Source of the DNA: Candidatus Daviesbacteria bacterium
GTDB lineage: Bacteria > Patescibacteriota > Microgenomatia > Daviesbacterales > UBA10151
Reading direction: 5' to 3'
Assembly: GCA_016186955.1 (NCBI GenBank)
Contig: JACPKP010000003.1
Location: forward strand, 194,290-258,289
Length of the DNA stretch: 64,000 nt
In this document: positions 30,142 to 32,286 of the stretch, piece by piece
Layout of the letters: each line of letters begins with the position of its first letter
How positions within the stretch are numbered: the stretch's first letter is position 1
Translations under genes and position numbers: made by a program
Notes under the pieces: model-generated
The model's database searches: none
Told to the model about the DNA's origin: nothing
What the model saw: the letters and a program-made list of their open reading frames with translations, nothing else

Positions 30142-32286
30142 ATGCAAAACCTGGTAATTGTTGAATCACCTACCAAAGCCCGGACACTTGCAAAGTTTTT
30201 GGGCGCTAAATATCAAATAGAAGCTTCAATGGGCCATGTCAGGGACTTACCAAAATCAGAGCTTGGTGTAGATGTAGGACAAAATTTCCAACCTAAATAT
30301 ATTATTCCCAGGGATAAAAAGAAACTTGTTAATACGCTTAAAAAAACCGCATCTTCTGCAAAGAACTTATATCTTGCAACAGACCCTGACAGGGAAGGGG
30401 AAGCGATTGCATGGCATATAGCGGAATTACTGCGTAACTCCGAAGTTAAAAGTCAAAAGTCAAAAGTCAAAAAAGAAGAATCGCAAATAAAGAGGGTTGT
30501 ATTCCATGAGATTACGGAGGATGCCATAAAAGAGGCTTTCAAGCATCCGCGGGATCTGGATTACAAACTGATTGATGCCCAGCAGGCGAGGCGGGTTTTA
30601 GACAGGCTGGTGGGTTATAAATTGTCCCCCCTGCTTTGGAAAAAAGTCAAAAGAGGTCTGTCTGCAGGCAGGGTGCAGACTGTTGCATTAAGATTGGTGG
30701 TGGAGAGGGAAAAGGAGGTAACTGCCTTCAAACCTGTTGAGTATTGGAGTATTGAGGCAGAGTTAGAGTCAAGAGTCAAGAGTCAAGAGTCAAGGTTTAT
30801 AGCTACTTTGACAGAGTTTAATAGCAAGAAGCTGGAGATTGGTAACGGGATGCAAGCAAAAAAGCATGTGGAGAACTTGGAAAAAGCAGAATATTCAGTT
30901 TCAAAAGTTGACCGGAAAGAAATTAAACGCTATCCTTTCCCGCCGTTTACCACTTCAACACTCCAGCAGGCTGCCGGCAATAAATTAGGGTTTACAGCTA
31001 AAAAAACCATGATGCTGGCGCAAAATTTATATGAACATGGGTTGATTACTTACATGAGGACAGATTCTTTTAACCTGTCTCCGGTAGCTTTGATGCAGTC
31101 AAGGGAGTTTATAAAGTCACAATATGGAAAAAATTATTTACCCCCAAAGCCGCGTGTTTTTAAGTCCAGATCTAAAAATGCCCAGGAAGCCCATGAGGCA
31201 ATACGCCCAACAAATATTAAATTCGAAATTCGAAATAATACGCCCGCTTCGCGAACGAAATTCGAACATTCTCTGACAAGAGACCATGCCAGGCTGTATG
31301 ACCTGATCTGGCAAAGGATGGTGGCATCCCAGATGGCAGAGGCTTTAGTAGAACAGACAGGTGTAGATATTATAGCCGTTTGTCATCCTCGACTTGATCG
31401 AGGATCATTCATGAAAATGGATTCCCGCCTTCGCGGGAATGACAGTGCAGAAAACCAGAATGACAAAACTTACACCCTTCATGCAGCAGGCTCTGTCATT
31501 AAATTTGACGGCTGGCTGAAAATATACGGAATAAGTAGCAAGACACAAGATACAAGAGACAAGAAGCAAGAAAAGGAGGAGGAAGAAGAAGATGAAAAAA
31601 ACCAGATACTGCCTGAGCTCAAAGTTGGCGAAGACCTGAATTTATTGCAGCTTTTACCAAACCAGCATTTTACCCAACCCCCTCCAAGATATACGGAAAG
31701 CTCGCTGATCAAAAAACTGGAGGAGTTGGGGATAGGCCGGCCTTCCACTTACGCCCCGATACTTTCAACCATCCAGGAGAGGTTTTATGTTGAAAAACAG
31801 GAGAAAAAATTCGTGCCGACTGCTTTAGGGTTGGCCACCTGTGATTTTTTAATTAAATATTTCCCGGACGTTTTTGACTACCAATTTACAGCTTCTATGG
31901 AAGATCAGCTTGATGACATAGCAGCAGGCAACAGGGATTGGAAACAAACCTTAATTGAGTTTTATCCGCCGTTTGAAAAAAAACTTGCAGGTGTTGAAAA
32001 AAAAGCCGGAAAAGTAAAAGTTGCAGTTGAGTATGCAGGGAAGAAATGCCCTAAATGCGGCAAAGAGCTGGTGGTAAGAGCCGGCAGGTTTGGCAAGTTT
32101 TTGGCATGTTCAGGTTTTCCGGATTGTAAACACACTGAAAGTTTGGTTACGGAAGTAATTAATGCAAAATGCCCGGAGGATGGCGGGGATATTGTTATAA
32201 GAAAGACTAAAAAAAGACGGGTTTTTTACGGTTGCAAAAATTACCCCGAGTGCAAATACGCGTCATGGACAAAACCTAAAAGTTAA
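30142..32286 (+). CDS. topA: DNA topoisomerase I with C-terminal zinc ribbons (contains three in-frame repeat insertions)
   Basis: LVIVESPTKA Toprim start, TYMRTDS region, catalytic core, CPKCGKELVVRAGRFGKFLACSGFPDC zinc ribbon; ORF begins 30097 with TTG, ATG at 30142 more likely. Confidence 0.9.
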   Translation: MQNLVIVESPTKARTLAKFLGAKYQIEASMGHVRDLPKSELGVDVGQNFQPKYIIPRDKKKLVNTLKKTASSAKNLYLATDPDREGEAIAWHIAELLRNSEVKSQKSKVKKEESQIKRVVFHEITEDAIKEAFKHPRDLDYKLIDAQQARRVLDRLVGYKLSPLLWKKVKRGLSAGRVQTVALRLVVEREKEVTAFKPVEYWSIEAELESRVKSQESRFIATLTEFNSKKLEIGNGMQAKKHVENLEKAEYSVSKVDRKEIKRYPFPPFTTSTLQQAAGNKLGFTAKKTMMLAQNLYEHGLITYMRTDSFNLSPVALMQSREFIKSQYGKNYLPPKPRVFKSRSKNAQEAHEAIRPTNIKFEIRNNTPASRTKFEHSLTRDHARLYDLIWQRMVASQMAEALVEQTGVDIIAVCHPRLDRGSFMKMDSRLRGNDSAENQNDKTYTLHAAGSVIKFDGWLKIYGISSKTQDTRDKKQEKEEEEEDEKNQILPELKVGEDLNLLQLLPNQHFTQPPPRYTESSLIKKLEELGIGRPSTYAPILSTIQERFYVEKQEKKFVPTALGLATCDFLIKYFPDVFDYQFTASMEDQLDDIAAGNRDWKQTLIEFYPPFEKKLAGVEKKAGKVKVAVEYAGKKCPKCGKELVVRAGRFGKFLACSGFPDCKHTESLVTEVINAKCPEDGGDIVIRKTKKRRVFYGCKNYPECKYASWTKPKS
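30443..30473. repeat. tandem heptamer (AAGTYAA)x4 in topA, in frame (KSQKSKVK)
   Basis: direct reading. Confidence 0.8.
30760..30794. repeat. tandem heptamer (GAGTCAA)x5 in topA, in frame (ESRVKSQESR)
   Basis: direct reading; same unit as dnaX tract at 62351. Confidence 0.8.
31381..31444. repeat. dual-hairpin MITE/REP-like repeat, type 1 copy (inside topA, in frame)
   Basis: tgtcatcctcgacttgatcgaggatc...ggattcccgccttcgcgggaatgaca; encodes CHPRLDRGSFMKMDSRLRGNDS inserted in topA. Confidence 0.85.

Follow-up and report, generated by a model that had tools for sequence, protein, structure and literature searches.

Translated heptanucleotide arrays in topA and dnaX of a Candidatus Daviesbacteria bacterium, probable members of a dispersed hairpin-element family

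The 64-kb stretch of DNA considered here (64,000 nt in full, hereafter the window) originates from an uncultured, groundwater-type Candidatus Daviesbacteria bacterium of the Microgenomates within the candidate phyla radiation (CPR). It carries topA, coding for a type IA DNA topoisomerase I, and dnaX, coding for DNA polymerase III gamma/tau (Table 1), two genes that are normally essential and present in single copy. Both contain short tandem arrays of closely related heptanucleotides, GAGTCAA or near variants of it, which are translated as part of the protein. These arrays, their counterparts in orthologous genes and a hairpin element of related genomes to which they probably belong are the subject of this report. 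The TopA and DnaX of the window are each 100% identical to Candidatus Daviesbacteria entries at NCBI (322,873-bp contig), and the closest relatives after these entries share about 66% (TopA) and about 65% (DnaX) identity; the protein cluster of the window TopA has one member, from one contig.

The three main arrays, namely topA sites 1 and 2 and the dnaX array, lie on the coding strand, in frame and inside long open reading frames (ORFs), with 4.3, 4.3 and 3.4 copies at 95-100% matches. They are the three RAGTCAA arrays of the 64-kb window. A first-pass annotation of this DNA had described them as (AAGTYAA)x4 at 30443-30473, (GAGTCAA)x5 at 30760-30794 and (GAGTYMA)x4 in dnaX, all in frame, and had pointed out that the gain or loss of one unit would shift the reading frame. 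Sequence and position of site 1 are as described, the ORFs of topA (30142-32286) and dnaX (62167-63768) bear out the frame of all three tracts, and the heptamer arithmetic is correct. At site 2 the array is present with four perfect units (4.3 copies and 100% matches in Tandem Repeats Finder, TRF), followed by a G; the count of five had included the imperfect 6-nt lead-in GAGTTA (30760-30765). The four dnaX units were likewise recognised rightly, at coordinates one base off the true span. Two further, weaker period-7 arrays lie in topA at sites 3 and 5, and site 5 is the weakest of the set.

Table 1. Positions of the arrays, their host genes and other repeats in the window.
Feature	Position	Strand	Description
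topA	30142..32286	+	Type IA DNA topoisomerase I; ORF; Pfam Toprim/Topoisom_bac/Zn_ribbon_Top1; hosts three to four heptamer arrays
topA site 1	30443..30473	+	AAGTTAA + 3 x AAGTCAA + AAA; translated SEVKSQKSKVKK; Toprim-domain loop
topA site 2	30766..30793 (TRF 30765-30794)	+	Four perfect GAGTCAA; translated ESRVKSQESR; predicted beta-hairpin tip
topA site 3	31219..31266	+	(AAATTCG)2.6 at 31219-31236; 21-nt nested insert at 31237-31257; AAATTCGAA at 31258-31266; translated KFEIRNNTPASRTKFE
topA site 5	31539..31573	+	Degenerate period 7 (ACAAGAN/CAAGAAA, ~5 units); acidic linker; TRF 82% matches
dnaX	62167..63768	+	DNA polymerase III gamma/tau; ORF; match to NCBI Daviesbacteria DnaX
dnaX array	62352..62379	+	GAGTTCA GAGTCAA GAGTCAA GAGCCAA; translated ESSESRVKSQE; loop between first two zinc-module cysteines
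Segment after dnaX array	62380..62397	+	A-rich loop (GAAAAAAG); possible right-arm remnant (TAGTAACTAC) of hairpin element
MITE-like insert in topA	31379-31467		In frame; terminal inverted repeats TTTGTCATCCT/AGAATGACAAA; two stem-loops; pLDDT<50 segment 418-439
MITE-like insert in dnaX	63280-63380		In frame; terminal inverted repeats TCCGTCATTCT/AGAATGACGGA
REP-like hairpin	4164-4183, 31421-31440, 51056-51075, 59816-59835, 61718-61737		ATTCCCGC-NTTC-GCGGGAAT; 5 copies, none expected
RAYT-like gene	53426-54094	+	Y1 (IS200-type) transposase; Pfam Y1_Tnp 6e-9; NCBIfam REP_Tyr_transpos 2e-12, 47 bits vs 80-bit cut-off
Inverted repeat of RAYT-like gene	53360-53374, 54103-54117		Perfect, 15 nt; TAGCTTCCCACCCTC / GAGGGTGGGAAGCTA; flanks the gene

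The repetition stands out clearly from the background of the window. The 14-mer GAGTCAAGAGTCAA is matched eight times with up to two mismatches against 0.41 expected, a number reached in none of 100 shuffles, and exact period-7 tandem repeats of at least 18 nt occur four times against none in 30 dinucleotide shuffles. Exact tandem repeats of the same minimum length with periods of 8-15 are absent from the window. Every heptamer array of the window falls inside topA or dnaX, and not in the intergenic spacers where most heptanucleotide repeats are found. A period-14 repeat at 9299-9329, (AGTAACCAGTAACA)2.2, was considered as a further member and rejected: it lies on the strand opposite to the gene at 7613-10030, which codes for a large membrane protein, and part of a transmembrane segment (LVTGYLLLVTLYL) is encoded there; a local duplication is its probable origin.

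All of the tracts occupy hypervariable, insertion-tolerant surface loops. Compared with the solved TopA structures 6ozw and 1mw8, site 1 (residues 101-115) is an insertion of 11-12 residues and site 2 (residues 209-218) one of 3-4 residues, while the dnaX tract (residues 62-77) adds nine residues to the E. coli gamma structure 1njf, where it separates the first from the second cysteine of the zinc module. The AlphaFold model of TopA has a mean predicted local distance difference test score (pLDDT) of 74.9, and its segments with pLDDT<50 (100-113, 364-373, 418-439 and 467-486) match sites 1, 3, 4 and 5, that is, four of the five repeat-bearing segments; the fifth, site 2, forms the tip of a modelled beta-hairpin (E200-212/E215-226). 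The same five sites are the length-variable positions of the TopA family, and the DnaX loop ranges from 5 to 46 aa across 120 orthologues. Programmed frameshifting of the tau/gamma type was discarded as an explanation of the dnaX tract, which lies in the ATPase zinc module and not at the domain III boundary.

Since a heptamer repeat translates into a peptide with a period of seven residues, 240 orthologues (120 TopA and 120 DnaX) were screened for peptides of 7 aa or more that agree exactly with a possible translation of a heptamer repeat. Such peptides were found in 38 of the 120 TopA and 18 of the 120 DnaX proteins, against about 1.5 and about 1 in residue shuffles, and they cluster in a small set of recurring loops. 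In many orthologues, these sites are without an insert. The TopA of P0071 carries a peptide identical to the ESRVKSQESR of the window, and all orthologous arrays that were read as DNA are in frame. At site 2, the DNA reads (GAATCAA)4 in L001, GAATCTA GAGTCAA GAGTCTA GAGTCAA in L002 and (GGCAACA)4 in L207; in L208, (GAATCAA)4 is interrupted by a 27-nt insert (about 10637-10663), and in L003 the array has decayed to GGTAACA GTGGACA GGCAACA GGCGACA. Thus, the linkers of orthologues, whose encoding by non-repetitive DNA would have spoken against a repeat origin, are for the most part heptamer arrays themselves, with the decayed site of L003 as a partial exception. The three orthologues with GAGTCAA-type units read as DNA (window, L001 and L002) all have a site 2 of 30 nt. 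Between the (GAGTCAA)4 of the window and the (GAATCAA)4 of L001, an identical G-to-A change has taken place in all four units, turning V into I and S into N; because this change alters two residues and keeps the repeat perfect, the conserved entity is the DNA repeat and not the peptide.

The other TopA sites behave similarly. Site 1 is built of AAGTCAA in the window, AAGTGCA in L003 and AAACTCA in L208, and interruptions resembling the nested inserts of the window and L208 are seen at this site in P0031, P0083, P0042 and P0003. Site 3, which is split by a nested insert in the window, is uninterrupted in the orthologue P0008 (KFEIRNSKFEI). In many Daviesbacteria, site 3 holds a G-rich array of about five AAGGGNN units (L207, 11048-11066), and the peptide REKGEGLRGKG is found there in many orthologues. 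This array resembles the quadruplex-forming heptamer repeats of the GGGNATC type known from Xanthomonas and Nostoc (PMC4692102).

The dnaX loop of relatives points to a larger unit behind the arrays. While the loop of L126 contains five perfect GAGTCAA units, those of L124 and L125 have (GAGTCWA)4 followed by an A-rich loop and an imperfect inverted arm (TAGACTC/TCGACTC) that ends in TAGCGACTAG. The element can be described as a hairpin of about 70 nt with a left arm of (GAGTCWA)3-5, the loop AGGAAAAYAAA and a right arm of (TWGACTC)n ending in TAGCGACTAG. The dnaX copies fold with -30 kcal/mol (z = -4.8) in L125 and -27.8 kcal/mol (z = -2.7) in L124, and full copies in relatives in general with z = -2.5 to -4.8. 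Homologous copies lie at unrelated loci, intergenic as well as coding: three are situated in spacers of L003 (2378-2452, 5827-5900 and 19999-20072), another one in frame in the thyA gene of L207. The spacer copy at 19999-20072, which was outside the set used to build the profile, is retrieved by nhmmer with E = 1.4e-20, and one of its frames gives ESRVKNLESRKTKSRLSTLATS, close to the in-frame dnaX peptide ESQESRVKSQGKENSRLSTLATRDL of L125. Both GAGTCAA arrays of the window match the profile as well, dnaX with left arm and loop (62350-62395, profile positions 2-45 of about 78, E = 3e-6) and topA site 2 with the left arm only (E = 4e-7). A second hairpin family of L003, (TCAGTCN)n-loop-(NGACTGA)n, occupies two spacers (1860-1945 and 20628-20712; dG -31.5 and -30.2 kcal/mol, z about -4 to -5), and its unit is that of the in-frame array at TopA site 3 of the same genome (11073-11105).

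Units are also shared between genes within single genomes. In L003, AAGTGCA arrays occur both at topA site 1 and in thyA, and L003 and L207 each have GGCRACA arrays in two genes, topA and that of the dCTP deaminase. Within 22 kb, L003 contains 10 period-7 arrays (11 overlapping detections), of which about half are coding, with units in common. The turnover at the sites is fast. Five DnaX pairs with 92-96% identity when the loop is left aside (P0143/P0160, P0168/P0180, P0134/P0140, P0227/P0229 and P0175/P0191) carry unrelated inserts, with flanks identical right up to the loop, and P0129, which is 85-86% identical to two members of these pairs, has no loop insert, so that close relatives differ by replacement and by presence or absence. 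Conversely, the peptide ESRVKSQ recurs in six other DnaX proteins that are only 53-61% identical to that of the window, and in the three of them read as DNA (L124, L125 and L126) it is encoded by the same heptamer DNA. On the TopA tree, P0004 (EGNSGQATGDS at site 2) stands beside P0080 (ESRVKSQEAR), neighbours with arrays of different families.

Similar arrays are widespread beyond this lineage. An exact scan for AGAGTCAAGAGTCAAGAG, corresponding to (GAGTCAA)2.6, in one genome per species matched at least 120 loci, against about 17 expected for uniform sequence by our own calculation. Among the matches listed, 38 loci belong to Bacteroidota, 35 to Cyanobacteria (mostly Nostocales), 13 to Planctomycetota and relatives, nine to CPR, seven to Acidobacteriota, five to Nitrospirota and 13 to others. 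Some of these listed matches lie in frame in housekeeping genes, such as a different TopA loop (Saccharimonadales), an L5-like ribosomal protein of Saccharimonadales and a GroES-like protein of Daviesbacteria, each at the N-terminus, and YebC-like, LeuRS-like and MutS2-like proteins, the identities other than TopA having been assigned by eye from the sequence. As an unselected control, a period census was taken in 1.1 Mb of unrelated TopA loci (42-52% identical to the window TopA, among the matches listed), where period 7 reaches 11.8 per Mb, compared with 3.6 for period 8 and 0.9 for period 9.

Heptanucleotide repeats have long been described as long simple sequence repeats (LSSR) or, in cyanobacteria, short tandemly repeated repetitive sequences (STRR), including the TAACTGA repeats of Beggiatoaceae, cyanobacteria and Bacteroidetes. 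With these, the arrays of the window share the tandem 7-nt units and the over-representation of period 7; several related units may recur over its genome as they do in L003, and the phylum spectrum of the AGAGTCAAGAGTCAAGAG scan, among the matches listed, is the same. In Calothrix, the STRR3 unit CAACAGT can be rotated to AGTCAAC, which differs by one base from AGTCAAG and from AGTCAAA. Most LSSR/STRR repeats lie between genes, and they are under-represented within coding sequence (PMC4692102), and the mechanism of their spread across phyla (Beggiatoaceae, Cyanobacteria and Bacteroidetes) is not known (PMC4679880, PMC4692102). Unlike them, every copy in the window is translated, within essential genes and at orthologous hot spots; relatives have both intergenic and coding copies, and in many relatives there is, as a further difference, an inverted second arm that forms a hairpin. 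In the literature searched, which was mostly open-access, no report of heptamer arrays in CPR genes was found, and looking up the peptides translated from the repeats, or the sequences of STRR units, yielded no usable result. The feature can be described as heptanucleotide LSSR/STRR arrays whose behaviour resembles that of in-frame selfish hairpin elements.

Three other systems invite comparison. The one well-studied translated heptanucleotide array is that of neuO in the prophage CUS-3 of E. coli K1, a variable-number tandem repeat (AAGACTC)3-53 that is ON only if the number of units is divisible by three; it lies at the 5' end of a gene for surface modification that is dispensable, is out of frame in most genomes and constitutes a true phase switch (PMC13001214). 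As in neuO, the arrays of the window are translated heptamers that keep the reading frame only if they add a length divisible by three. The neuO unit AAGACTC, the complement of GAGTCTT, also forms part of the right arm that the dnaX hairpin has in L124. The window arrays differ in having about four units, in forming internal loops of essential genes and in being in frame, as are all orthologous arrays read. Rickettsia palindromic elements (RPE), reportedly described by Ogata and co-workers in 2000 as in-frame selfish DNA in protein-coding genes, are said to be short dispersed hairpins that lie in frame at surface positions of conserved or essential proteins and also between genes, like the family described here; they are, however, said to be palindromes of about 100-150 nt with a defined sequence and no tandem heptamers, known from Rickettsia. 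Repetitive extragenic palindromic (REP) sequences and REPINs, whose biology is described in PMC3116915, are likewise dispersed short hairpins that often fill intergenic spacers, whereas REPs, as their definition requires, lie outside genes and are not built as heptamer arrays.

Taken together, these comparisons lead us to favour, with moderate confidence, the reading that the tracts belong to, or are left over from, a dispersed, neutral or selfish family of heptanucleotide arrays, STRR-like and, in behaviour, REP- or RPE-like, which is spread across Daviesbacteria and filtered by selection. The founding unit would be the hairpin element of about 70 nt, alongside which solo arrays exist. Copies would land or arise genome-wide, and in essential genes selection would keep only those located in a permissive loop, with a length that is a multiple of three and on a stop-free strand. 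As all three phases of a heptamer are read every 21 nt, an array is coding only if none of its phases contains a stop; GAGTCAA can be coding on the forward strand only, because its complement TTGACTC contains TGA, and its orientation is therefore fixed. As long as the flanks stay fixed, a change in length is viable only if it amounts to ±21 nt, which fits the constant site 2 of the window, L001 and L002. The arrays may then be homogenised as DNA by out-of-register pairing, conversion or three-unit slippage, and their peptide product would be a short hydrophilic passenger loop (ESRVKSQ...) with no required function. In the window, the dnaX copy appears to be a truncated element that has kept the left arm and the loop and lost most of the right arm save a remnant; topA site 2 looks like a solo array of the left-arm type, and site 1 like its one-base variant AAGTCAA. 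The first-pass annotation had held that a unit shared by two unrelated essential genes was no coincidence and suggested active insertion or expansion. The former view is upheld, given that the dnaX tract matches a dispersed element, that L003 shares AAGTGCA between topA and thyA and that the loops turn over; for present-day expansion or copy-number instability there is no indication in this genome (single contig), where the copies lack a hairpin partner and look like remnants.

Several points weigh against the selfish-family reading. The dispersal of the element is observed, while its mobility is what we infer, and for the heptamer elements neither a transposase nor a target-site duplication nor an intermediate of insertion was recognised. 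The 64-kb window contains neither a full hairpin copy nor an intergenic copy of the element, and matches to the element profile are limited to its two coding GAGTCAA arrays. These do not display the hairpin architecture (-6.4 kcal/mol and z = 0.28 for the dnaX segment, z = -1.8 for topA site 2), and it is by its array that topA site 2 may be assigned to the family. GAGTCAA arrays are common in several phyla, and a general preference for the unit could explain part of the sharing. Since the TopA and DnaX orthologue trees are star-like, a scattered distribution does not by itself tell recurrent gain apart from repeated loss, which leaves the close pairs as the decisive ones. Finally, the orthologues read as DNA were picked for heptamer-looking peptides, which inflates the apparent density of arrays and also the apparent conservation of the dnaX tract, which ranks among the 5 most nucleotide-conserved of 444 sub-windows across the four genomes read as DNA, with a third-position invariance of 0.62 against a gene mean of 0.14; the periodicity of the dnaX DNA is nonetheless real, as a choice by peptide leaves the codons free.

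Other explanations have to be measured against the same data. The arrays could be independent local microsatellites that arose by in-place slippage in a length-tolerant loop, sharing their unit through stop-free, hydrophilic and A-rich constraints and a preference of the polymerase for 7 nt. Heptanucleotides are the most abundant class of long simple sequence repeats in most prokaryotes (PMC4679880, PMC4692102), for which a 7-nt polymerase contact favouring slippage has been proposed (Mrazek et al. 2007, as summarised in PMC4679880). Of all heptamers, about 69% (11,256 encodable 7-mers) have one strand free of stops, a conserved Glu codon opens both GAGTCAA arrays, and the units of site 1 vary between species and are homogeneous within each, as in-place concerted evolution predicts. 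This origin is nevertheless unlikely, for it leaves unexplained the loop and the TAGCGACTAG right-arm end common to the dnaX insert and intergenic copies of another genome, the unrelated inserts in nearly identical DnaX proteins and the same rare unit AAGTGCA in different genes of one genome. Moreover, since slipping by one unit is lethal in topA and dnaX, simple slippage cannot homogenise a four-unit array. The constant 30 nt of site 2 argue against a freely slipping microsatellite. Length variation as a contingency mechanism, with copy number switching topA or dnaX on and off or yielding truncated isoforms, finds a precedent in neuO, a coding repeat whose unit is not a multiple of three (PMC13001214). 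Here, however, the tracts are internal loops and not 5' leaders, have about four units instead of 3-53 and are in frame in all orthologous arrays read; a change by one unit would truncate TopA after residue ~220 and DnaX after ~75, in genes that are the opposite of the dispensable surface or host-interaction genes expected for such a switch. Phase variation is thus very unlikely.

Selection could also act on the nucleic acid or on the protein. In the former case, the tracts would serve as GANTC clusters at 7-bp spacing for a methyltransferase or a DNA-binding protein, as cold-shock-type binding sites or as terminator or mRNA-stabilising hairpins. GANTC is indeed contained in GAGTCAA, GAATCAA and GAGTCTA, the synonymous positions of the dnaX tract are far more conserved than the remainder of the gene, and the intergenic copies span stop-to-start spacers and fold strongly, like terminator or stabiliser hairpins; CspB binds heptamer repeats with one protein per unit, according to the review in PMC4679880. 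The GGCAACA, AAGTGCA and CAGTCGT families at the same sites lack GANTC, however, GAGTC is found outside the tracts of the window 28 times against 29 expected, the insert is absent from many orthologues and the window copies do not fold, all of which renders a function of this kind improbable. Restriction or methylation at GAGTC/GANTC in particular was rejected, the frequency of GAGTC outside the tracts being as expected and the other unit families being devoid of the site. At the protein level, charged flexible linkers or a beta-hairpin extension might be selected, with the DNA repetition being incidental. The predicted order of the hairpin tip at site 2, the two length classes of its orthologues (9-10 and 13-14 residues) and the uniformly hydrophilic peptides would suit this idea. 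It is highly doubtful all the same: unrelated peptides occur at one site (ESRVKSQESR, EGNRQQATGNS and ESDKAQVTSNK), the DNA periodicity is maintained while the peptide changes, the Ser codons alternate between TCA and AGT exactly as the heptamer dictates, and many orthologues manage without an insert.

The window holds further repeats and mobile-element features (Table 1). The RAYT-like gene (REP-associated tyrosine transposase) is flanked by an inverted repeat without clear further copies in the window; this repeat is unrelated to GAGTCAA, and no link between the gene and the heptamer elements was found. The REP-like hairpin, also unrelated to the heptamer arrays, is translated in frame twice, in a formyltransferase-like gene (VIPAKAGIQ) and in topA (DSRLRGND). 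Both topA and dnaX additionally contain an insert that resembles a miniature inverted-repeat transposable element (MITE). In the 3' direction from topA, six ORFs without Pfam match extend over 32330-38041 (five on the + strand and one, 37310-38041, on the - strand). In L003 and L207, CTP synthase follows within about 0.5 kb after topA, in L003 with a short bAvd-like gene in between; because topA adjoins CTP synthase there, the block of about 5.7 kb in the window looks like an insertion of unknown genes. A C/A-rich tandem repeat of 12/18/48 nt (CCAACACCCACA...) at 45354-45451, inside a GH16/CBM-containing ORF (43968-45872), probably encodes an interdomain linker rich in Pro and Thr. A scan of viral contigs yielded 12 matches, and Rfam and tRNA scans of the 64-kb window gave none.

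Returning to the reading of a dispersed selfish family, it is conceivable, if doubtful, that heptamer-armed hairpins represent a distinct class of very small mobile element across phyla (CPR, Nostocales, Bacteroidota and Planctomycetota). Such a class could spread by a Y1/RAYT-type enzyme, by template switching at stalled forks or by break repair with templated synthesis, and its repetitive arms could restore the reading frame, enabling the elements to colonise essential genes. To our knowledge, the origin of bacterial heptanucleotide repeats has remained unexplained since 1990. If such a class of element exists, the topA and dnaX hot spots of CPR bacteria would be a natural recorder of insertion, replacement and homogenisation, from which this origin could be worked out. 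Units, hairpin and solo forms, nested insertions and replacements vary across hundreds of metagenomic relatives, and because the orthologous loops differ so widely, the mechanism is open to comparative and read-level population genomics. In practical terms, the inserts enlarge and diversify CPR proteins and create low-complexity loops, which can mislead alignment, orthology calls and structure prediction, and the translated peptides (ESRVKSQ, SRLKTLAT, SAVSHQP etc.) are not to be taken as functional motifs.

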